From Patellaria atrata CBS 101060 (lineage: Eukaryota), in the NCBI GenBank assembly GCA_010093705.1, contig MU006095.1:1274663-1294662 (forward strand): a stretch of 20,000 bases of DNA. The letters run 5' to 3'. The notes beneath the pieces were generated by a model that was given only the letters and a program-made list of their open reading frames with translations, did no database searches and was not told where the DNA came from. This document shows, one piece after another, positions 581 to 19,684 of the stretch; the first letter of the stretch is position 1; every line of letters starts with the position of its first letter. The position numbers and the translations under genes were made by a program.

Positions 581-1664
581 TCACAGAGTGATAACCTTCT
601 CACCCTGCTTCGGCGGCCTACAACAAAACAGAATCGAGTCGACCAAACTCGCCAACCCGGCAACGAAAGGGATGAGCTGACCTGGCGTGCCCATGTCTCC
701 GAACGGTTCGAGATTGTTATACTGAATCGTCATTTCGGCCGTCGCGACGAAGAAGGGAAACATGATGAGACCGGTGACGGTAGGATACAAAAGTTGCGAT
801 GCGAGATTTGAGCGGCCTTCACCGGAGATAGTCTGAAAAGTGAGTTAGTACCTGGGCCAAGTCTGTAGTTGAAAGAATGCGAGTACATACCCATTCATCG
901 TCATCCAAAATGTCGTTCCACCACCACTTCGAAATCGGTATGACTGCTTTCGTCAAAGAATTGTATACGGAGAAAAGTACCAAAAACGATGAAAGAGCCG
1001 TCAGAGCCGCCATCATTTTCCAATACCAGCCATCGATCGACACTCGAGTAAAAAACCATGTCACGTTAATCGTGTCCAGTTTGGGTAATTTGGATCGTCC
1101 TACGGGCCAGAACCACATAAAAACACCGTTGAACCACAATGAGGTCGCATTGTAGAGAACCAAGCCGAGAGCGTTCCCTCGAATGCCTGAATTGATGATG
1201 CTGGTCCCTACAGTGGTCATATTGGTGCCGAGAATATTGCAGATGACCAGTGTCTCTGCGGCACTGATATCTTTTTTAATAACCAGTCGGCACCATGCAG
1301 CAAGCACGGAGATGAAAATGACTGTCGAAAAGATCATCGGTGGCCCACCTGCTGGAGAACGGAGTGGCCTGATCATAATGATCATACCTGCGATGGATTG
1401 AAGATAAAGTCCAACACGGATGCCGATGCCGTAAGTATCCTGAGCTGCGTCGGGATTGCCAATTACCCTCCGGGAAACTAGATGTTTCGGTAGAGTCTGT
1501 GAGGTATGGCTGAATATGAGAACTGCAGTGAGTCCGATGCAGAAGACAATCGATGTGCACATGAACGGCACAAACACATTTCTCCTTGAGGTAGTTTTTT
1601 CTTTCTCCAAGCTATATGTAGCTACCGACAATGACCGCTGCCCTGGGTATGCTTGTAAATCCAT
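581..1664 (-). CDS. Uncharacterized fungal multi-pass membrane protein, about 341 aa, 2 exons: complement(join(581..832,891..1664))
   Basis: ORFs 819-1664 and 581-790 join in frame across a 58-nt intron (890-833) with a GTATGT donor, TACTAAC branch point and CAG acceptor. The protein has several hydrophobic segments and the motifs GNPD..YGIGIRVGLYLQ and EMTIQYN..GQLIPF, which I associate with a family of hypothetical fungal membrane proteins. Confidence 0.85.
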
Positions 1665-3381: not shown

Positions 3382-3854
3382 CCGAGCTCTCTCACTTCAT
3401 CATGATCTTCCTGCGACAATTCAGAAGTGCTTGGGCGAACCTTAAGGGCTCAATAACGGTAAGTCAAACAACAAGCGACTCGCACCAATATGACGGCCAG
3501 CCCCAGCTTCAACCTTTTTAATCATGCATCCACCTCACACTTGTCCTCTCCTCACCCATTCAACTCCAACTCTTCAACTCACTTCCTCAAAACACCAAAA
3601 CTCCCATCGCCGCCATCCCCTTCTATCACCCTTACCGCAAACGAGAGATACGCTCGCGCCCCTTTCACGCTCCACCAACTCACGCTTCGGCCTGACTGAC
3701 TGACCTTGCACGCCAACGGTCGCTTTGAACGGTCACGACCTCCCTTTCAACCCACTTTTACCTCCGAATTTCATTCATCCTCAACACTAGGCATTCACGA
3801 CGAACAAAACAATCTCGCGATAATTCGTCAATGTCGCCTTCCACCACACTCACC

Positions 3855-4827
3855 ATGTCTTCCTCGCCTAAATCCACAAATATGGCAAAATCTAAGCTGG
3901 TAAAACTCGTCCTATCGAGTGAAGCACTCAAACGGTTCCCTCACGAAGCACCTGTTCGTAAAGAGTCGCGATCAAAGTCATCTTCATCGTCTACCTCAAC
4001 GCCAGCAGAGCACGTAGTCGATGCTTCACCACTCACCATCCCTTCCGAGATGAACGAGTCGCCAGCACCCAATGGCACTGCCAACCCCTTACCATCTAAT
4101 CCATCCTCGGACAATGCGACATCAACATCTCAAGCTGCAAATGGCCTTAAGAGGAAAGGGATTCCTGGCCCAAAACCAGGCTCCAAGAGAGGTCCTCCCT
4201 TGACCGCAGATGGCCTCCCCAAACCTCGAGGAAAGCCTGGACCTAAAAAGAAGCCAAGATTGTAAGTCTACAGCTACCCCAGAATCTATTCACAACATAT
4301 GTTCCCGTCCTTAGATGCATTGAATGGCTGAACCAGCAATGTATCAGCTTACACGCGTCTCTGATCCAATCATTCCATCACATATACTATCGTAATGAAA
4401 ACTAACATTATTCTGTAGGGGCGACTTCAATGGCGACCCTATGCTTCTCAAGGCTGCGTTGGGGAGCATGACAACCACGCAAAAACTGGGTCCCAAAGCC
4501 AACCAAGGCGCCATCAATGCCGGTCTACGCGCTCTCGACAGGTCTGGCAAACCTTGTCGTAAATGGGAAAGGCAAGGACTTCAACTCAAGAGCTTCACTG
4601 GAGTCGTCTTCAATGTTCCACTCTGGAGAGCTCCTAGGAAGGTCAACGTCGATGAGAATGGCGATGTCAAGAGTGACACTACTGGTTCGAGCGAAGCTAA
4701 ACCGAACAATGACAGCAGTGCTGTCCCAAGCGAAAAGAGCAATGGGAATGTAGACACCCCTAATATAGAGCAGGCAGCGGTCAATATTGTTGGCTCACCT
4801 AGCCCTGCTGTCGCCACACCAGCCTGA
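3855..4827 (+). CDS. IES4: INO80 chromatin-remodelling complex subunit Ies4-like (DUF1711) protein, about 271 aa: join(3855..4261,4419..4827); alternative start at 3831
   Basis: Contains the motif KLGPKANQGAINAGLRALDRSGKPCRKWER..LKSFTGV.F..P.W, preceded by basic KRKGIPGPKPG and KPRGKPGPKKKPRL segments. Intron 4262-4418 (GTAAGT..ACTAAC..TAG) joins the two ORFs in frame. The ATG at 3855 has a CACC context. Confidence 0.85.
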
Positions 4828-5928: not shown

Positions 5929-8286
5929 ATGTTTCGAAGATCTTCGTATGCCTCAGTCGCCGCGGGAACCGCGGCCTCCACATCCCCACAGCCCTTCCAG
6001 TCTAGACCTAACACCTTATCACCCATGATGAACCCAACTTACAGCGGGGCGAATTCCCTCCCATATTCAACACACCATTCGCGACACCCGTCAAGAGGTA
6101 TGGACGTAGAAGGACATCATAATGCAGGTTCTTGGGGAAGAGGCGGTCAGCTCCCATCATATTCGAGCCAGTATGGCTATTCATCAAATGGTTCCGGTGG
6201 CGGAGCATATGACGGATTGCATGAGACTTTCTTCATACCATCCTACCTGAGGGGATCGAGGCATATGGAACGGTTAGAGGAAGCATACAAAGCACGCGTC
6301 GCTGCTCAGAGAGAAATGAAGTCTTCGCACTCCAACCCTGGTTCGCTATCCGCGAGTTCGAGCAGCGTAAACCTTCATAAGATGGTACCCTCGCATCGTG
6401 GGATGACACACGACATAATAGAAAGAGCACCTGCTCATAATGAGCCCAAATACGCTCCTTTACCCATGCGGTGGAGTGAATCAGATATGGTAGGACTCGA
6501 ATTACAAGCGGACGGGCTCGAAGTAAGATTTGGCGGCTCGAGTAAAACACACGATGATGCAGCATCGATAAGAGCAGATCATTGTATGCCACGGCAATGC
6601 GGAATATACTATTACGAGGTCACAGTTGTATCCAAAGGGAAAGAAGGGTGGGAGACCTCCCGTGGGTATAAAAATTGGGACTATTCTAACTGATTCAATG
6701 ATATAGGCTCATTGGCGTCGGTTTCTCCGCGAAAGGAGTACCCCTGAATAGATTACCTGGTTGGGAGCCACGCTCGTGGGCGTACCATGGGGATGATGGC
6801 TACAGCTTTTGTCAAACCGCACAAGGTAAAGCATATGGACCCAAATTTTCCACTACAGATGTTATAGGCTGTGGTATAAATTTCCGAACCAATTCTGCTT
6901 TCTTCACAAAGAATGGAATATATCTAGGTATGTCAATCCTTACAGTTAGAAAAAAAGTGTGCTTAGTTGTATCAGGAACCGCTTTTAAGGATATCCTTAA
7001 GGAGGAGGATCTCTATCCCTCGGTCGGTATGAAAAAACCCGGAGAGCATCTAAGAGTAAACTTCGGGCAGTCTCCATTCATATTTGACATTGATGGGATG
7101 ATGAGGGTTCGTAAGCAAATCCGCTTTTCATCTGATCAAAACTAAATTTTTATCCAGCAAGAGAAAAAGATGATTCAGGACGAAATTAACAAAGCAGATG
7201 TCGCATCGCTACATCCTCCACTCGACGAGACAGCACTAATCCATGAGCTAATCGCTCAGTACCTCGCCCACGACGGGTACGTCGAAACAGCACGTGCATT
7301 CGCCCATGAAGTACGCGCAGAGTCGCAAGCCCTCGCAAATGGGAACACTAACGCAACGATTAAAGAACTCGATCCCGCCGACGACATCGATGGTGTAAAC
7401 CGGCAACGTATGTTCCCCTTGTAAGCGCAGTCTCAAATTCTAAAGACTGACGGTAGACTAGGGATACGAATGGCAATCCTCGACGGCGACGTCGACAAAG
7501 CTCTCAAATACACAAAATCGTTTTACCCGCGCGTCCTACGCGAAAATGAAAACATCTACTTCAAACTCAAATGCTGCAAGTTCGTCGAAATGGCACGGCG
7601 GTTCGTGGAACAACAATCGGCAAATGCGCCGTCTTCGAATCGGGCCACCAGCAACGGCAACGCCACGAGCAACGGACATAGAAATCAAAATGGCAAAGCG
7701 CCCGTCATAAACGATTACGATGATGATGTCTTCGACCACCAGATGGAGCTTGATGACCAGCTGATCCATAACGGCGGCAGCGGGGACTGGGAACGCATGG
7801 ATATGGAGGACAGCCAACCGCATGAATCTCGAGCTACAGGGGAGAAGGAGCAACAGGGAGATCTGATGGTCGAGTTGTTCAAATACGGCGCCGAGCTCAA
7901 GACGGAGTTCAAGGATGACCCTAGGCGAGAGACGAAACAGACGCTCGATAGCATATTCGCGATTATCGCGTATCCGGACGTGAGGGAGAGTCCGGTGAAT
8001 CAGTTACTCGACGTTTCGGGGAGAGTAGCGGTGGCGGAGGAGTTAAACGGGGCTATTCTAGGTGAGTAGTTGAACATTTCTCCCATTCAGACACTGGAGA
8101 AGGGGGGTGGGATGGCAGTGCGGCAACAGGAGATCATGGCTAATGTGTACAACAGTGAGTCTAGGCAAATCATCGTCAGCAGCCCTCGAGCGCCTCTGTC
8201 AGCAAAGCGAAGCTCTCGTCAACGAGCTCGCGGGCGATGGTGGACCCGGCGCTTTCATCAACGTCAGGAAGGACTTTTTGCTGTAA
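5929..8286 (+). CDS. RanBPM/RanBP9-10-like (Gid1/Vid30-type) SPRY-LisH-CTLH-CRA protein, about 683 aa: join(5929..6647,6707..6927,6976..7106,7158..7407,7462..8061,8156..8286)
   Basis: SPRY motifs CGIYYYEVTV, IGVGFS, LNRLPGWEPRSWAYHGDDG, DVIGCGINF..FFTKNG and LYPSVGMKKPGEHLRVNFGQSPFIFDID. LisH motif LIAQYLAHDGYVETARAF, CTLH motif RIRMAILDGDVDKAL, and CRA-like end VAEELNGAILVSLGKSSSAALERL. Five GT-AG introns give a 2052-nt CDS ending in TAA at 8284-8286. Confidence 0.92.
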
Positions 8287-10543: not shown

Positions 10544-13000
10544 TATGCTAAAAATTGATGTTGCTTTGATAATCTTCTAGGACCCATGCTGAAAGTCGAT
10601 ATCTGGACGAAGCTGAACCGTCACGGAAGGAGCCATTGCAGCGAGGGTAGTGAGAATCCCTTAGTGAGAGCTTTGTCGGCCAGGTATCTGTTAAGTCCTT
10701 CGACATAGAAGGTGCGGTCGATAGCAACAAATAAATCAGATGGTTGGTCAGCACCATTTGCTTTCCTAAGATGGTTTCTTTCTTCAGGATCTATGAAATC
10801 CCTGAACATCCAGCAACGGGATGTCTGGAAAGCTACCATCCGTACGAATATCTTGGACATACATATCCTAGATGGTTATCGAGACTTGAAAATTGGGTGG
10901 TACCTCAGTCGTACAGTACATAGTGAGCCAGCCTGTACCAGTATCTAGCGTTGTAGCTGTACAGTACGAGTACCTAGATTATGCAGGTTTCGGAAGACTT
11001 ACAATGCTTCAGAAAATTGTCTTTGACTCCGCTGTACCCAATTGCTGGAATATATCCTGAGACCGTTAGCTGTACAAAGGCCTCAACCTTGAATTCCCTT
11101 CAGGAGCCATCTATACTCTCGGATGGGCCCCATCGACTGCTGATGGAAAGTGCTTATCAACTGAGGTATATTTCCTATACGTGCCCATATCATGGTGTTA
11201 TAAGGTCACTGTGCAGTCGCTACGTGTTCGCTCTTCCGCTCCGCTGCAAAAAAACCAGACTGGGCAGGTCAAACGATTGGAAGTTGTACGAAAGCATAGT
11301 CGCACACAACATACACACTTTGAAGCATGAACAACATCTGAGACTGATTTCGTTATGAAGTTCGGGTACAAGCGTACTGTACAGCACCCGAAGAATCTTG
11401 ACTGCAGTAAGAAGAGAGCAGGGTAAGATTAAAACTATGCCCGATCAAGACCATACTGGTAGCAGAAAGTAGTGATAAAGTTTAAGGTATGATGATCGGT
11501 CAAACGATCCAATCTTCATCTGATATTTTACTGTGGATCTGCAGTGATCTCAACCCTGATCAGGAAGCTCCTCCTGCATCCTTCTCTCCCGGCTCTCGGG
11601 TTTGAGATGTGAATATCTTGCAGAGTGCAGATGTGGATGCCTTACAGCTTTTACATTCGAAACACCACGAATCGATGAAGAGGAATCAACAAAGACAAAA
11701 ATTTAGAGAAGATAAAGGTGAAGAAAGCGCGTACTACGGCATTTAGGTTGAAAAAGAATAATAGGATAACAACAATAAGCGGACTAACACAGACCTTTTA
11801 CTTCGGGAGACGGGCTACAACGGTCCGCTGAGAGTCAGTGTCTCAAGCGCCCTGCTATGGCCATAATAAAAATGGACGATGTGGAGACTTGGATGACTGG
11901 GATAGAGAGACTATCGAAGATCGACAGTCATCTTGTTGAGACCTTAAGATACCACTCGAGATGCGGAAGGTGGTGTCGCTTTGTCGTGGCTATAGACAAG
12001 AGGGTTGGCTGTCTGTATGTCTGCCCAAATCTAAACTATTTACTGTTTATGATGCTGATATTGGTATCCAGGGAAAGGTGATAGGTTATCGAACTTTTGG
12101 GCACTTAAGGAGCAGCATCGTGCTGGTGATGAATCGCCCATCTGCAGCCCCAACGTTTACTTGTCGATATCACGGCCAAGCTTGTGTGTCAGTCGCGTCC
12201 TCAAAAGGGAAAATTCCCCTGGTGATCACTCCCATAGCTTTGGCCGCTAGTCCAGCTGCGTTGAGCGCGCAGATGCTTTTGCAATCTCAACCTTCGCCGC
12301 CACATGCGCTGAAACGGACTAGATTCTGCTCAAGCCCCCTATCAAGCATCACGAAGTGCCGGACAGGAAAAACGTCCCATCAGAACTGCGCGAGTTTGTT
12401 GGACTCTGTTGCTTTCTCGACATCGTGATGTGCTAACGACTTTGGACTCATCGGAGGGGGGAAGTTCCCAATTAGGATGAAAATTGCGATGATCTGCGGT
12501 AAGCGTGTGCTTTGGCAGAGGCGCGTTTTCTAACGTTTGAAGTTGGTATGGCTACTGGCTAGCATTCTTCGGTCAAAGTCTTTACGGTTGGCGGCCAACT
12601 ATTTCCTGACACCTGCTGACCTCCTGCTTGACCGCTTGATCTTTCCCCTCGAAATTCAAGAAATCGCTTGCCCGTGGGGAAGGGGCCCGAGGGACGCGAT
12701 GTGGATTTCTGGATGGTGATAGCCATCATGGGTGTGAATTGTTTACTCAATCAGTATGAAGTGGGTCTAGACTAGAGCTATGTCAGCGGTAGAGACTTTA
12801 TATCATGCCTTTCACTTCCACGTCAGATCCACATGAGACGACTCTTTTTTAAACACAGTCCTTCGTCTATCTTTATCTTATCCATCCTCAGATTCAAACG
12901 TATCAATTAACTTTGTATGCGTTAAAGATCGAGGTCACCATCATATATACTATACCTGCACGACTGCATTATTATAACCTTAATATATTAACTTCTAATC

Positions 13001-14641
13001 ATGGGCCGCTTAGCGAGGTATACCACCTGGTTCTCGGGAGACGACAACATCCCACCCATATTCTTAAAACAAAGATCCTCAAGTCTTTTTATCGTCTCTA
13101 CTGTCGGAATTGCAGTCTTTACAGACATTTTCCTATATGCTGTTATTGTTCCTATAGTGCCTTGGGCACTCACACAGAGAGCAGGTGTTGAGGAGGATAA
13201 AGGTATGAGCACACCATCCAACCCGCTTTTTGAGAATCCTTCACGCTGATACATTGGTAATAGTCCAACATTGGGTATCCATTCTCATAGCAATATACGG
13301 TGCAGCACTCGTTGCTTTTTCTCGTATGTTCTTGCTCTTACCCCACCTCGCAGTCCACCGAACTCGAAATCTTTCGTTATATTGCATCATTGACTGACTG
13401 GATCTTTAGCGATATGCGGATACCTTGCAGATCATACGTCTTCAAGACGATCACCACTTCTATTAGGACTTGTAGCTCTCGCGGGAGCCACTGCTATGCT
13501 TAATGTCGGTACTACTATCGCCATTTGGGTGGTAGGGCGTCTTCTTCAAGGGGCTAGTGCTGCTGTCGTATGGGTTGTAGGATTAGCCCTGCTAGTAGAT
13601 ACTGTTGGCCAACGTGATATTGGTAAAGCTATGGGCTTCGTCAGTATTGCCTTCACCATGGGCATTATGCTTGGACCCCTTTTAGGTGGTATTGTCTTCG
13701 ACCACGGAGGGTACAATGCTGTCTTTGCTATGGCATATGGTATGATTATCTTAGACATCATACTCCGGGTCCTTATGATAGAAAAGAAGCATGTGAAGAG
13801 GTGGGAGCCAGTTGTACCAAGGTCCGATTCCGTGTGGTCCAGCCCCCCAAATACGGCTACGACTTTGATGCCAGAGGAAAAGGCCTTCTATGGTATTGAT
13901 GAAGAGAAGACGTATGGTTCGGATAACGCTCAGCAGAGGAACATCGAACCGATGCCCCCTGGAACGGATTCAGCAGTAGACTCCAAGAGTAAATACCCCC
14001 CGGTCATTACTCTTCTCGCTTCCCGACGACTTCTCGCTGCTCTATGGGGGATCCTAGCCATCGGTTCCGTAATGACCGGCTTCGACGCGACTCTCCCTCT
14101 GTTTGTCCACGAAAACTTTGGTTGGGGGAGTACAGGCGCCGGTCTTATTTTCCTCCCCATTGTCATTCCTTCCTTCCTAGGACCACTCATCGGATGGGTT
14201 GCAGACATCTACGGTGCACGTTGGCTTAGCGCAGCAGGATTCCTTCTCGGAGCACCTTTCTTGATACTTCTACGTCTCATTGACCACGATGATATGCCCC
14301 AGAAAGTTTTATTATGCGCATTGCTCTTCTTTATCGGAACCGCCATCAACTTAGTCATGGCTCCGCTTATGGCAGAAATTACTTATGTTGTCGAAGCAAA
14401 AGAGAAAGAGAGACCTGGTATGTTTGGGCCAAAGGGCGCGTATGCACAAGCGTACGGGCTATTTAACATGGCATTCGCCATTGGATGTGTAGTAGGTCCG
14501 GTCTGGGCCGGTATGGTGAGAGATAGCAGTGGATGGGGAACTATGGGTTGGAGTTTGGCGATTTTGAGCGGTGTTAGTGCTATTCCTACTGCTATTTGGA
14601 CGGGAGGATTCATTCTTAGAGCAAAGAGAAGGGAAACTTGA
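13001..14641 (+). CDS. MFS transporter, vesicular amine transporter (SLC18)-like, about 497 aa: join(13001..13202,13264..13323,13410..14641)
   Basis: Motifs VFTDIFLYAVIVPIVP, motif A-like GYLADHTSSRR, GRLLQGASAAVVWVVGLALLVDTV, GPLLGG, GWVADIYGAR and AYAQAYGLFNMAFAIG, with about 12 hydrophobic segments. Introns 13203-13263 (GTATGA..GCTGAT..TAG) and 13324-13409 (GTATGT..ACTGAC..TAG) keep the frame. Confidence 0.92.
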
Positions 14642-15014
14642 ACGGGGTGTTTGGAAAGGGATGAACGTTGGTTTGACGGATGTATTGAGTACATGAGTGA
14701 TGCTGGACGGCAGCGAGTCTATTTATTCATACATTTTATTTGCACGTACGCCTATAGTGGCAAAAGTATCTTATACACAATTAAGACACAAGATTCACAT
14801 CGATATTTCTCGTCCTTTGCTGCCTGTGCACAGACCACTAGTTCTGTTAAAATTCATGGATGCATAGAACCAACGGCAGAATTTCGGCTACGCGTCTTCC
14901 AGTTGGCCCAAGCTCTATTTTTATTTTTCAAGACTTTAGACTTCCTCTTTATAAAAAACCACAGAAACTATGACATACCACCTTCTGACCAAAATTGATA
15001 CATGAATTCTTGAT

Positions 15015-17807
15015 ATGCGTATCTCTCTTAATATACGTCGTCATGGCCTCCCATCCGTCTCCCTTATTTGGCCCCTCAAACCGGCCGATCTCCCCAACCA
15101 GACCATCGTTCAGTTCCTCGAAGCTATCAACGATGCAATCCCTCTCGAGTCCTCACACTGGGGACTAGACGACTACGTAGTCACCATCCATGGCAATGAG
15201 CTTCTACACTACATGAAAGTTGCTGATGTCGTCGAGAAAGACGATGAAGTGATTGTACGCCCTTTACAGACATCTGAGATAAGGGCCAGGACGCTAGGTG
15301 GCAGGTATCAGATATCTGCTGCCGGACAGCATCTTACGGATGGTATTGCTTTTGGAAAACCCTGGCTGAGGAGACCGACAAGGCCGCTGGTCAATATTCC
15401 ACCTGCGAAGAGGAGGAGGGTGGGGTGGGGTGAGGAGGATGAGGAGGAGGATTTGTGGGATGAGGAGGGATTGGATGAATTGGAAAATAGGTTGCAGTTG
15501 CAGGATACCCCGAGGACTGGAGATAATCATGGGTTTCAAGATGAAGATGAAGATAAGGAAGACGATGAAGATTGGGTTCCTGAGGGAGTCAAGGACGTAT
15601 ACATTGGAGGTAGGTCTACTGCTGACGACCGGTATTTGCCCCCGAAAACTTCAAAAGCTAGAAAGAGTGTCACGTTCAACGATAGAGTGGAGACGAATGA
15701 GGATAGACGTCGAGTCCCACTTATGAATAAGCTCCCAGCGTTAACAACACTTGACAAGGACGATGAGGATAGTGAAGATGACTTTTTACCATCGTCGGAT
15801 GAGAACTCAGATTCAGATTCAGATTCAACGTCTAACCAGTCTGAAGAACAAATGAAGTCTGCTCGTGACGATTCAGATTCAGATTTGGAAGACTCTGATT
15901 ATGTTTCTACTAGTTCCGACGACACCTCATCTCTAGATGACGACAGTTCGGATTCTTCAGAAATGTCTGAACCTGAAGATCAACCCGCGAAACCCCCAGC
16001 TACGAAGAAACAAATAGATGCCGAAAGTTCCAGTTCATCTGCCCCGTCCGAGTCTGAAGATGAGCCCAAGATCCTTCCGACGGTGAAAACGAAGACAGCG
16101 GTAACTGAACCTAAGAAACAATTACAACAACTCAAGAAGGTACCATCCGAAGGATCTTCAAATTCAGTCTTGTCAAAAGCAAAATCAGAGTCAACAGCTA
16201 AGCTTCAGAGCAATAAAAAGGACCATACTCCGGATCAACCCGTAATCCCTCCAGGAAAAGGCCAGAAAGAGACGCGAGAACGCAATAAGAGGCGAAAAGA
16301 TAGCAAAAGGCTCCGCGCATTAAAAGCGCGAGGACTTCTTCCAGCGAACGCGGATAGAGCGGATCTTTCGGAGTACCTACGTAAGACAAATCAAACAGAA
16401 GAAGGTTTCGAGGAGGAAGACTTAGCGAGGTCCCAAGACAACGCGACTAGAATTCCTCGAAATGGAAGTAATGACATAATGGGTATAAACGGGTCTCACA
16501 CCAGCGCAGAAGGTGGGACGCATAATAAGGAAAACAAGAACAATGGCCCTTCCGGAACTGGAGAGCAGACTTCTGATCTCGCTCTAGTTTCTAGCGCACA
16601 TTATACTATCAACTCAGATGTACAAGACGATACAATGAAGGACGACACACTACCCACGAAACGGGCGCGACTCGACCTCGCAGGTTCAAGAAGACTCGTC
16701 TTCGGTTCTCTAGGAGTACGCACACCAAAGACTAAAGAGGACGAAGACCGTCTCCGTAACAAACTTTCCGCTAAACAACTTCCCCGCGAACTCAGAGCCG
16801 CCAAAGTCGCTCAGGACGCCACAACAGCTAAAGCGGCGAAGAATACTCCGCCTCCTGACCCAGAGGATCCGGACGCTTGGAAATCCAAGGTCGTCCTTTC
16901 TGCGATAGAGTGTTGGGACAAAACGGTCGAGGAGCTAAGCACTCCGCCTTACCCGTTCAAGCAAAGGTGGGATCCCCAGCAGGATGCGAGCTACTATCAT
17001 ACCAGATCGAAGCGTACGAGTAAGAAGAGGAAGTTGGCTGAAGCATATGGAAGAGGTGAGACGGAGGATATCGGTTACATGGAGGAGAACTCATATAATT
17101 ACAATCACGAAGAAGGTCCCGAATACGAAGGGGAATATCCTGATGGTGGCCTCAATTACGACGATGAGGTCATACAGGAAGATACCGAAGCCGCTGAATC
17201 CCAACTCATTCAGGAGACCGAGATAGCGGAATTCAGAGACGATAGCGTCGACGGTGGTATCCCCCCTCTCCCACCCGACCCCTCGATCCTTTCTCCCCTA
17301 GACTATCAGGACGTGGTACAGGGCGCCATCATCGTCTTCAAGCAGCTCGAGGTCTCCCAAGCCACGAAATGGGAGCCTAAAATGTCAGGCTGGAAAACGG
17401 CGACGGTGGAAGGATGCATGAACTCCCTCGTCTACATAAAACTAGCGGCGCGCGATATCCCCAAGAAGGAGAAGAAGTTCGATCACGAGGGTCGCAGGAT
17501 GTACGAGAAGTTCGAGATGGCGTCCGATTCCGAGGACGAGGATGAAGGCTTCCTGGCCATTTCTTTCGACGAGTTGGTCGAACCGAAGTTCTTGAGGGAA
17601 GCGAAGCCCGTAAATAGCGGTAAGGAAGGGGTGGAGATTGTGGAGCCCGAAGATAGCAATACGCTAAGTTTGGAGTCTGTCACCGCTGTTGCTGACGGTG
17701 TGGATATGGTCGTTCGCGAGGCGAGTGCGGGAGCTGCTGGGGAGGAGGGGATTCAGGTCTCGGCTGAGGGCGCACAGGAATCGCCATTGATAGAAGCGAC
17801 GGCTTGA
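15015..17807 (+). CDS. 930-aa intronless nuclear protein, putative coilin (Mug174-like): N-terminal coilin-type domain, long acidic/Ser-rich disordered linker, C-terminal Tudor-like domain
   Basis: Uninterrupted ORF with basic NLS-like patches (PAKRRRV, RNKRRKDSKR, KKRK) and D/E/S tracts. The C-terminal GAIIVFKQLEV..WEPKMSGWKTATV..KFEM..ISFDELVEPKFL matches the coilin C-terminal pattern as I recall it. The CDS is high confidence and the coilin identity is moderate. Confidence 0.8.
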   Translation: MRISLNIRRHGLPSVSLIWPLKPADLPNQTIVQFLEAINDAIPLESSHWGLDDYVVTIHGNELLHYMKVADVVEKDDEVIVRPLQTSEIRARTLGGRYQISAAGQHLTDGIAFGKPWLRRPTRPLVNIPPAKRRRVGWGEEDEEEDLWDEEGLDELENRLQLQDTPRTGDNHGFQDEDEDKEDDEDWVPEGVKDVYIGGRSTADDRYLPPKTSKARKSVTFNDRVETNEDRRRVPLMNKLPALTTLDKDDEDSEDDFLPSSDENSDSDSDSTSNQSEEQMKSARDDSDSDLEDSDYVSTSSDDTSSLDDDSSDSSEMSEPEDQPAKPPATKKQIDAESSSSSAPSESEDEPKILPTVKTKTAVTEPKKQLQQLKKVPSEGSSNSVLSKAKSESTAKLQSNKKDHTPDQPVIPPGKGQKETRERNKRRKDSKRLRALKARGLLPANADRADLSEYLRKTNQTEEGFEEEDLARSQDNATRIPRNGSNDIMGINGSHTSAEGGTHNKENKNNGPSGTGEQTSDLALVSSAHYTINSDVQDDTMKDDTLPTKRARLDLAGSRRLVFGSLGVRTPKTKEDEDRLRNKLSAKQLPRELRAAKVAQDATTAKAAKNTPPPDPEDPDAWKSKVVLSAIECWDKTVEELSTPPYPFKQRWDPQQDASYYHTRSKRTSKKRKLAEAYGRGETEDIGYMEENSYNYNHEEGPEYEGEYPDGGLNYDDEVIQEDTEAAESQLIQETEIAEFRDDSVDGGIPPLPPDPSILSPLDYQDVVQGAIIVFKQLEVSQATKWEPKMSGWKTATVEGCMNSLVYIKLAARDIPKKEKKFDHEGRRMYEKFEMASDSEDEDEGFLAISFDELVEPKFLREAKPVNSGKEGVEIVEPEDSNTLSLESVTAVADGVDMVVREASAGAAGEEGIQVSAEGAQESPLIEATA

Positions 17808-18988
17808 TTGTGATTATATTGGGTGCGAGTCGGACTTTCGCCGTGGTGGGGTGGAAGTATAGTTCAAGTGTCGCCGCGGTAGGAGTCGTTATATTTGCAT
17901 CTGCATACCTTAGTGGATAGTTAATATGCAGCATGGGACGCCAGCATAATGGTCAGGTGTTAGCACAGCGCGGGTCTTTATCATCGCCATCTGCGTAGGC
18001 GTGGTTTATGTAGCATGTATAGCTGAATAGCATTTTCGTTCCCTCTTATTCTTCTCCCACGTCCTTGTACTGTATGGTCGGTGTATAGAAGGCAGTCTGA
18101 GTCAGTGAGTGGGTATGCTTGTCTGATATCTAGAGATATATGGTAGAATAGACCAAAGTAGAGTCATGCACTACAGCACGTTGGTGACATTACTGCTTTG
18201 TACTTTGACGCTGCTGTACGCTTATCTCATACATCCACGCTGCTGTAAAGCACGGTCCGGTACACTCACGCTTTAGAATCTTTCGAACACTCCCATTAAA
18301 CTTTATAGTGTAGTATGGTCTAGTATGGGAACCTAGGGTGCCGTAGTGTACTACTAGACTGTACCGTACCACCCGTCTGAATTGAACAGGAACACTTGCG
18401 TACAGTACGGTATAGTACAGTAAAGCAGAACAACTGAAAGTAGGTCCTTTAGGTTATTAGATTGTTACTGTACTATACCACATCATGCCACAACCTCGTC
18501 CCGTCGTTCTGAAGCAAGAGTTGAAGAAGCGCACAGCACACGCTGGAAAGCGCAGCTGGGATGGAGGAATACAACTCCGACGCCTCGACTCGAGGGGAAC
18601 GAAGAACGAAGAATGTCAGCAGTGGTGCGTAGACCATGGTATCACGACGGAGTAGAACTACACACAGCATCGAGTCCCAGCACAGTGTGGCCAACGATCC
18701 GTATCGATAAGGTATTAGTATTCTCGGTATTTCATCGGTATTGTATCGAATATCATAATACCTTAACAATACTCTTGGCATTTTAAGATTTTTTAATATT
18801 CTTTAGAATTCAACTAAAATATTATCGTTTTCTTAGAAATTTAATTAAAATAAAGATACTCTTCGTACGAAGGGATTATATAGCTATGAATAACATCTAT
18901 AGCTGTTCTAAGATAGAAGGCACGAGGGCGTGCCTACGTGCCTGCCTGTCCACCTGTCTACTGGCCCACCTGCCTACCTGCCAATTTG

Positions 18989-18995
18989 TATAAAA
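18989..18995 (+). promoter_or_regulatory. TATA box (TATAAAA) followed by a CT-rich tract, upstream of ORF 19118
   Basis: TATAAAA, then a pyrimidine tract at about 19000-19050, which is a typical core promoter layout in filamentous fungi. Confidence 0.5.
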
Positions 18996-19117
18996 TACAT
19001 CTTTTTTTTGAATTTCTCTTCTTCTCTTCTTCTCTCCTTCTCAATCTTTGATTTTAGTAACTCAAAGTGTAAGTACTCAGCTTAAACCTATCGTACGAAG
19101 GCTAATAAGACTATAGT

Positions 19118-19684
19118 ATGGCCAATACGCAAGTAGTTCTCTATAACCCAGCGATCACGGCTGCCGCTCACGCGAACCGCAACCCGGTGCTACTCGTAAC
19201 ACAGCAGCAATTGGCTCCGTGGTGTCACAGCCCACAGAATAGAGCACTTCTGGCCGTCGGTGGAGGTGTTGATGTTGAGTTCGTACGTGACTCTATCACA
19301 CCGAGCAGATTGGATCTCATAGGCAGTCATATGTCAATGGGATTCTTATCCAGTCTCGTGGAGGTGACGTTGATCCTTGTGCGGCTTGTCGTACGAGAGA
19401 TTTCCGTCCCTTCCTTAGTTGTCACCGCGCTGAGGGACACTTTGGCGGAACATGCGCCAACTGCAAATGGCGCGACCATACAGCACGCTGTTCCGTACGA
19501 GCTGGTGGTCCAGATAAGCCTGCTCAAGGAGCCAGGGTGCTTGGACCTGGTTCAGGGGTTGACGGAGCTGACGGCACCGCCCCTGGGAATGCTATTGTGC
19601 TGGATGACGATGAGGGGCTACTCCCCAAAATGCTATAATCATTGGTTGAGCAGAGCTTCGTACGAAGTATTCTTTGGCGTTTAA
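19118..19684 (+). CDS. Hypothetical (orphan) protein, 188 aa
   Basis: ATG-initiated ORF preceded by a TATA box, a CT tract and a canonical 48-nt 5'-UTR intron at 19069-19116 (GTAAGT..GCTAAT..TAG). No recognisable domain. Confidence 0.5.
   Translation: MANTQVVLYNPAITAAAHANRNPVLLVTQQQLAPWCHSPQNRALLAVGGGVDVEFVRDSITPSRLDLIGSHMSMGFLSSLVEVTLILVRLVVREISVPSLVVTALRDTLAEHAPTANGATIQHAVPYELVVQISLLKEPGCLDLVQGLTELTAPPLGMLLCWMTMRGYSPKCYNHWLSRASYEVFFGV

Follow-up and report, generated by a model that had tools for sequence, protein, structure and literature searches.

A very probable coilin orthologue in the mould Patellaria atrata, with a DUF7357 N-terminus and a Tudor-like barrel predicted to dock on Sm proteins

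Described coilins and the Patellaria protein

Coilin is the scaffold of Cajal bodies, nuclear structures that aid the completion of splicing particles. Its general features are taken here from PMC10494742, and its N-terminal domain is reported to be ubiquitin-like (Ubl), the human one requiring R8 and D79 to self-associate (PMC9556525). A preprint on human coilin further describes a Tudor-like domain that is set apart from canonical Tudors by extended beta1-beta2 and beta3-beta4 loops, both of which bind SmE, SmF and SmG (SmE/F/G), together with an arginine-glycine (RG) box that binds RNA by charge, an R-to-K change rescuing the binding of RNA and of small nuclear ribonucleoproteins (snRNPs) (10.64898/2026.03.10.710772). 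The Arabidopsis coilin is described as having no RG box and as binding RNA via basic clusters (PMC3539977). Among fungi, Mug174 of Schizosaccharomyces pombe was proposed as a coilin from AlphaFold models (PMC9666668), and it is reported to form foci, to bind Tgs1 and U small nuclear RNAs (snRNAs) and to promote trimethylguanosine (TMG) capping (PMC11347179); together with Eas1 and Tgs1 it makes up the TEaM complex (PMC13473130). The main text of the Mug174 paper makes no mention of Aspergillus, Neurospora or fungi, a point on which its supplementary alignments could bear (PMC11347179), and a review by the same group covers, in its accessible text, yeasts and worms only (PMC11369484). Here we describe a gene of the filamentous ascomycete Patellaria atrata CBS 101060 whose product, P0001, is very probably a coilin; it lies in a stretch of 20,000 nucleotides (nt), referred to below as the window (GCA_010093705.1, contig MU006095.1, forward positions 1,274,663-1,294,662).

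The architecture of P0001 is that of a Ubl domain, a disordered centre and a Tudor-like barrel. As in human coilin, strand 1 of the Ubl domain holds a basic residue and its last strand is preceded by an acidic one, and the barrel has extended beta1-beta2 and beta3-beta4 loops (which serve the Sm ring in the human protein and are predicted to do so in P0001), with a positive segment upstream. In contrast to human coilin, which carries Coilin_N (PF15862), an RG box and Tudor_Coilin (PF23086), P0001 is not matched by Coilin_N and has a lysine/arginine (K/R) patch in place of an RG repeat, and its 930 amino acids (aa), against 576 in the human protein, include a 48-aa conserved N-terminal extension and three conserved motifs, B1-B3. 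With Mug174 it shares an ascomycete origin, two folded distal domains, a disordered centre bearing a nuclear localization signal (NLS), putative in P0001, and recognition as coilin by structure and not by BLAST (PMC11347179, PMC9666668). Mug174, however, has experimental proof in its foci, its binding of Tgs1 and U snRNAs and its role in TMG capping, whereas P0001 is known from sequence and models; and S. pombe has both Mug174 and Eas1, whereas P. atrata has one DUF7357 gene. The Arabidopsis protein likewise lacks an RG box and has a disordered tail after the Tudor-like domain and a proposed Ubl N-domain (PMC3539977), so that a missing RG box is no argument against coilin membership; its basic clusters were mapped by experiment (PMC3539977) whereas those of P0001 are predicted, the two being compared by description.

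We propose that this ascomycete has P0001 as its one coilin orthologue and, jointly, that the proteins of Pezizomycotina combining DUF7357 with Tudor_Coilin are the mould coilins, a proposal in which we have high confidence. Both ends of the protein indicate coilin by independent routes, namely Pfam, structure search, fold prediction and a predicted SmE/F/G interface. The original prediction, which had read a coilin from motifs at the two ends, is thereby borne out, and all the motifs that it quoted are present in the translation of the open reading frame (ORF). Whole-genome searches with PF24054, PF23086 and aa 540-868 gave a single match each, placing the copy number at one. Over window positions 13000-19000 the assembly shows 0 differing letters, indels or joints against contigs of two public runs, which represent one sample, probably of DNA and possibly from the same source as the assembly.

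A homologue search over 5.8 billion proteins, with 8000 scored candidates of 511-1628 aa, yielded 117 relatives including P0001, and counts over these are not independent because Xylariales are strongly represented in it. All homologue rows with an organism name come from Pezizomycotina, among them Arthrobotrys, Neurospora, Talaromyces and lichen fungi. Five blocks were delimited with local profiles, N (aa 1-135, 92/117), B1 (aa 410-452, 115/117), B2 (aa 547-585, 106/117), B3 (aa 616-657, 117/117) and T (aa 747-866, 117/117); 81 of the 117 have the complete set, in the same order in 81/81, and the remainder are without at least one block. Median identity to P0001 is 51% in B2 and B3 versus 34% in the barrel. 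The two globular ends that had been expected are indeed folded in the AlphaFold2 models, but the conserved N-block reaches aa 135 (about window position 15419) and not aa 85, and the centre, correctly called low-complexity by its composition, is broken by the three conserved motifs. The tail after block T is bimodal, at least 300 aa in 89/117 and under 120 aa in 25/117, with 64 aa in P0001; some short-tailed homologues may be gene calls that end too early.

The claim that the protein was unrecognised holds in part. UniRef names the homologue P0002 'Coilin', a precomputed Tudor_Coilin match stands on 16/117 rows, and a 2026 paper applies the name 'Coilin' to A0A093VAG7 of Talaromyces marneffei (possibly a member of the present family), with no functional test in its accessible text (PMC13689312). 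Pfam, on the other hand, attaches no function to DUF7357 (PF24054), and a literature search that covered few subscription journals found no paper on DUF7357 or mould coilin function. The surprise is limited because the fission-yeast coilin is published and databases auto-name some mould members. One Fusarium homologue, P0026, bears the name 'SRP40-suppressor...', apparently a mis-annotation arising from the Ser-rich acidic region.

The folded ends and predicted docking on Sm proteins

Tudor_Coilin matches the C-terminal block over model positions 15-103 of 105 at 25.5 bits (E 1.6e-5) when the domain is scored by itself, and it is the sole Pfam family found there at E<=0.01. Of 30 scanned homologues, 7 pass the family cut-off (best 47.3 bits), 17 have a match at E<=0.01 and one more has a match at E 0.13. 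AlphaFold2 builds the region as a barrel of five strands (aa 772-779, 794-802, 805-810, 846-850 and 854-861), with a predicted local distance difference test (pLDDT) of mostly 90-98 in 10-residue blocks over about aa 750-860, and of 77-82 where the long loop ends. Loops L1 and L2 measure 14 and 35 aa (family medians 14 and 39 aa), and are conserved at W786 (111/117), P788 (117/117), Y830 (109/117) and F833 (114/117); the conserved aromatics of these long loops are W786, F822, Y830 and F833. Short loops that form an aromatic cage are the mark of canonical methyl-reader Tudors. In the ESM Atlas, the C-terminus retrieves the family's own two clusters and then, in rows 3-7, coilins only, from arthropods, chordates, green algae and annelids, at template modelling (TM) scores of 0.59-0.70; the arthropod cluster stands at 0.70 and the chordate cluster at 0.64, and unrelated barrels come next at 0.45-0.51. 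The Atlas feature score of 0.85 is below the 0.9 lead level and was not counted as support. PDB sequence searches with the C-terminus found no relative (one match, E 1.6), and the full-length profile drew 25 matches, all in acidic middle positions.

The predicted complex of aa 745-868 with SmE (P0118, which matches the genome's exons), SmF (P0370) and SmG (P0238) scored 0.72 (runs 0.71-0.73), the best of 3 controls having reached 0.00, and the runs share at least 90% of contacts, with a partner pLDDT of at least 77. The score mark is reached by 51/78 solved versus 2/108 mismatched pairs and, among eukaryotes, by 39/65 solved pairs without a like complex versus 2/126 unrelated pairs, although the SmE/F/G prediction, run without alignments, is unlike these calibration jobs. 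Confident contacts join aa 778, 780, 785-790, 833, 853 and 855 to SmE 16-24 and 47-50 and to the SmF N-terminus, and W786, P788 and F833 of this interface are among the most conserved residues. No coilin chain came up in the PDB searches, which makes it improbable that the prediction merely reproduces a solved coilin-Sm complex. On these models, binding of the Sm ring by the Tudor-like domain's loops is likely. We therefore did not retain in full the expectation that Sm/SMN binding would work differently in this protein: the Sm-binding loops look conserved, and it is the RG half, which binds RNA and SMN, that alone is changed. The mould coilin would thus keep Sm-binding loops of the human type, and both these conserved loops and the extra mould motifs are new findings. 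Were moulds and humans to share docking of this kind, the ancient core of coilin would be its Sm-binding module and not the RG box, and the human mechanism, for which a preprint is the present source, would gain support. The genome has matches for a Tgs1-like protein, SRP40_C/Nopp140, SMN Gemin2-binding and 15 Sm/Lsm, which are compatible with a coilin and undiagnostic, and a genome scan with SMN_Tudor gave two weak matches (23.3 and 19.7 bits).

Two observations on the Sm records may be set down here. The first intron of the SmE gene is in frame and stop-free, and gene callers read through it for that reason; P0142 has kept an insert that looks like an intron. Among fungal SmG records, many carry the wrong name 'Serine/threonine-protein kinase smg1'.

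At the other end, DUF7357 matches aa 1-130 over its entire model (E 3e-50), and AlphaFold2, from a 46-row alignment, predicts a beta-grasp fold for aa 1-87 with a mean pLDDT of 88 over aa 1-137. Among solved structures, ubiquitin and ubiquitin-like domains match it best (Z 8.4, root-mean-square deviation 2.0, 74 aligned; Foldseek, VIA), and PDB sequence searches with the N-terminus found no relative up to E 10. The ESM Atlas returns, in order, two DUF7357 clusters, an unnamed Basidiomycota cluster and a Mucoromycota coilin cluster; this last, the first family-bearing cluster beyond DUF7357, has a TM score of 0.66 to the N-domain and carries Coilin_N in 54% and Tudor_Coilin in 66%. R2, in strand 1, is invariant (46/46), and before the last strand aa 77 is D/E in 46/46 and aa 76 in 41/46; by their position in the fold, we infer that R2 and aa 76-77 are putative counterparts of human R8 and D79. 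Within the extension, R92, G96, R97, G104, L107, D109, G110, G114, R123 and P124 are each invariant (46/46), and the pattern of aa 130-135 is NLS-like. In our reading, which is new, DUF7357 comprises the coilin N-terminal domain and an extension that ends in an NLS-like motif; this would give a function to a family found across Pezizomycotina and point to the gene for tagging in two classic genetic models.

The disordered centre, a possible mechanism and rival readings

Beyond the acidic region the composition turns basic, with 25% K/R over aa 351-460, and within aa 540-868 several linker stretches have an AlphaFold2 pLDDT below 50. Motif B1 is, from its residues, a candidate RNA-binding or nucleolar-targeting helix. 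In B2, AlphaFold2 places helices at aa 555-565 and 574-587 (block pLDDT 76-93). B3, in which E632, P647, F648 and W652 are each present in 117/117, has a pLDDT of 56-80 and, modelled alone, almost no secondary structure, which suggests folding on a partner; it is a probable partner-binding motif. The absence of an RG-repeat box, already noted in the original prediction, is confirmed: P0001 has 2 isolated RG dipeptides (aa 439 and 680), and 2/117 homologues have three RG inside a span of 20 aa. In its place, a stretch of at least 5 K/R per 10 aa lies between B3 and the barrel in 114/117 (mean 6.3 versus 3.8 in shuffled linkers), a median of 82 aa ahead of the barrel, while the 60 residues that lead into the barrel have a median net charge of -11 and so are acidic. 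RGG, GRG or RGR occurs up to 25 aa past B3 in 49/117, against 63/5882 background windows elsewhere. We read the K/R patch as a charge-based stand-in for the RG box, with about even chances, or as its remnant, but it may be no more than an NLS.

If P0001 is a coilin, it would enter the nucleus by its basic NLS-like motifs and polymerise front-to-back through the Ubl domain, with R2 on one face and the acidic aa 76-77 on another, and the N-domain may recruit Tgs1, as the N-terminus of Mug174 does. On immature snRNPs, the long loops of the Tudor-like domain would, as the complex prediction supports, dock on the Sm ring at its SmE/SmF face, and the upstream K/R patch might, with roughly equal odds for and against, hold the snRNA by charge instead of an RG box. 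A Cajal-body-like condensate would then promote TMG capping and maturation of snRNAs, and probably of telomerase RNA, an outcome that S. pombe makes reasonably probable. By the same analogy there is a good chance that visible Cajal-like bodies exist in moulds, Aspergillus and Neurospora probably among them, and the identification of the gene makes such bodies directly testable there. More speculatively, mould coilins could be a distinct variant. One protein would cover what Mug174 and Eas1 do, the K/R patch would be what is left of a decayed RG box, and Tgs1 or other RNA factors would dock on near-invariant motifs, namely B2, the aa 88-135 extension and, in particular, B3. We hold this version to be rather unlikely; were it true, it would connect a Cajal-like body in Neurospora and Aspergillus with TMG-cap-directed RNA interference and with the silencing of transposons, a connection that TEaM provides in S. 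pombe.

Several findings weigh against P0001 as a coilin or against its docking on the Sm ring. The original prediction had looked to profile or structural matches of the termini, and of these the C-terminal coilin clusters of the Atlas were found, while the profiles fared less well: Coilin_N is unmatched in P0001 up to E 10 and in 0/30 scanned homologues up to E 5 (a Coilin_N scan of the genome gave no match, nor did its controls), P0001 falls under the Tudor_Coilin cut-off of 27 bits (21.5 full-length, 25.5 domain-only), and 12/30 scanned homologues are without any Tudor_Coilin match. Solved structures matching the C-terminus are generic barrels, the best at Z 7.4 (VIA, in a search that barely covered the B2 and B3 region, aa 540-757), with none at E<=0.001 (Foldseek, aa 540-868). 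The ubiquitin-like fold of aa 1-87 is by itself coilin-unspecific as modelled; TUG-UBL1, YukD and ubiquitin models reach TM scores of 0.62-0.70 alongside the 0.66 of the coilin cluster, so that the N-terminus alone is suggestive and not decisive, and its Atlas feature score, 0.80, is no better than chance and below the 0.9 lead level. In the predicted complex, SmF and SmG are stand-ins from other fungi (42/51 residues matched for P0370, 47/50 for P0238), no confident SmG contact is listed, and K794, the putative equivalent of human K496, is K/R in 49/117 and a gap in 58/117. The equivalences to R8, D79 and K496 are putative, drawn from residue position.

The generic PDB matches of both domains and the 0/30 result for Coilin_N are what an unrelated fusion would give, in which a generic Ubl domain and a generic SH3, Tudor or LSm barrel were joined in, for example, a chromatin reader or mRNA-decay factor. 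That Tudor_Coilin has the C-terminal block to itself among Pfam families, that the best non-self structural matches are coilins, and that long loops with an Sm interface upon them are coilin features make this very unlikely. An Srp40/Nopp140-type nucleolar chaperone that resembles coilin through low-complexity sequence could account for the acidic, Ser-rich centre and for the name given to P0026; its probability is close to negligible, since the coilin signal derives from the folded ends, SRP40_C (PF05022) is unmatched in P0001 up to E 10 and in the 30 homologues up to E 5, and the genome's own SRP40_C match lies at another locus (G000:C2:773647-773850, E 6e-22). An Srp40/Nopp140 identity is thus largely refuted. 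An origin on the side of Eas1 is suggested by the two coilin-related proteins of S. pombe (PMC13473130), but the accessible account describes Eas1 homology for the N-terminus only (PMC13473130), and P0001 has both ends and is the sole DUF7357 and Tudor_Coilin match in its genome, so that we regard this alternative as highly improbable. A more serious contender, though still on the unlikely side, is a true coilin and Sm-ring adaptor without a visible Cajal body, acting in a diffuse or intranucleolar form or in a small Tgs1 co-factor complex like TEaM. Canonical Cajal bodies are said, in the accessible text, to be missing in Aspergillus nidulans (PMC11964246). The Mug174 foci of S. pombe, on the other hand, are reported to contain Tgs1 and U2 snRNA (PMC11347179), and P0001 has a long disordered region and shows conservation at its putative polymerisation residues. 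Our preferred reading thus remains that P0001 is the coilin of this mould, with body formation the less certain part.

Coordinates and neighbourhood of the gene

Features of the very probable coilin gene and its product, P0001, in window positions
Feature	Position	Strand	Remarks
Very probable coilin gene, protein P0001	15015-17807	+	one ORF without interruption, 930 aa
Ubiquitin-like (beta-grasp) domain, first part of DUF7357, putative self-association domain	15015-15275	+	aa 1-87
Conserved DUF7357 extension	15276-15419	+	aa 88-135; helix, short hairpin, NLS-like basic motif aa 130-135
Acidic Ser-rich disordered region	15420-16064	+	aa 136-350; 33% D/E, 15% S, 16% hydrophobic
Basic motif B1, PPGxGxxxTxxRNxRRR	16242-16370	+	aa 410-452; T420, N424, R426 each 115/115
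Two-helix motif B2	16653-16769	+	aa 547-585; G567, P571, R560 each 105/106
Linear motif B3, W..KI.L.AVECC...LS.PPFPF.QRWDPQQ	16860-16985	+	aa 616-657
K/R patch where animals have the RG box	17004-17033	+	aa 664-673; charge-based RNA-binding candidate or NLS
Coilin-type Tudor-like barrel	17253-17612	+	aa 747-866
Loop L1 (beta1-beta2) with W786-E787-P788, main predicted SmE/SmF contact	17352-17393	+	aa 780-793
Loop L2 (beta3-beta4) with Y830, F833, E834	17445-17549	+	aa 811-845

The neighbours of the gene in the window (Ies4, a CTLH-domain gene and a transporter) give no functional hint. The gene of the INO80 subunit Ies4 occupies 3831-4827 (+), where two pieces of ORF (PF08193, E 7e-14 and 2e-41) are probably its exons, and a probable RanBP9/Gid1-type gene lies at 5929-8069 (+), with its CTLH match at 7470-8066 (E 8e-15); the ORF upstream of the CTLH piece, which has no Pfam match, ends in what we take to resemble the start of a SPRY domain. 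A major facilitator superfamily transporter exon at 13496-14641 (+; PF07690, E 2e-37) stands directly upstream of the coilin gene, and at 819-1664 (-) lies a 281-aa ORF that contains several hydrophobic stretches and matches no Pfam family at E 0.01. A young multicopy element begins at 18683, about 0.9 kb downstream from where the coilin gene stops, and runs past the window end (20000), with a hairpin at 18701-18772 and an ORF at 19118-19684 without a Pfam match; its first bases presumably resemble the end of a DNA transposon. It has 18 matches in the genome, 8 of which (its own copy included) are 100% identical over about 1320 nt, its contig depth is 10-30x background, and loose contig ends fall at 18681-18683.

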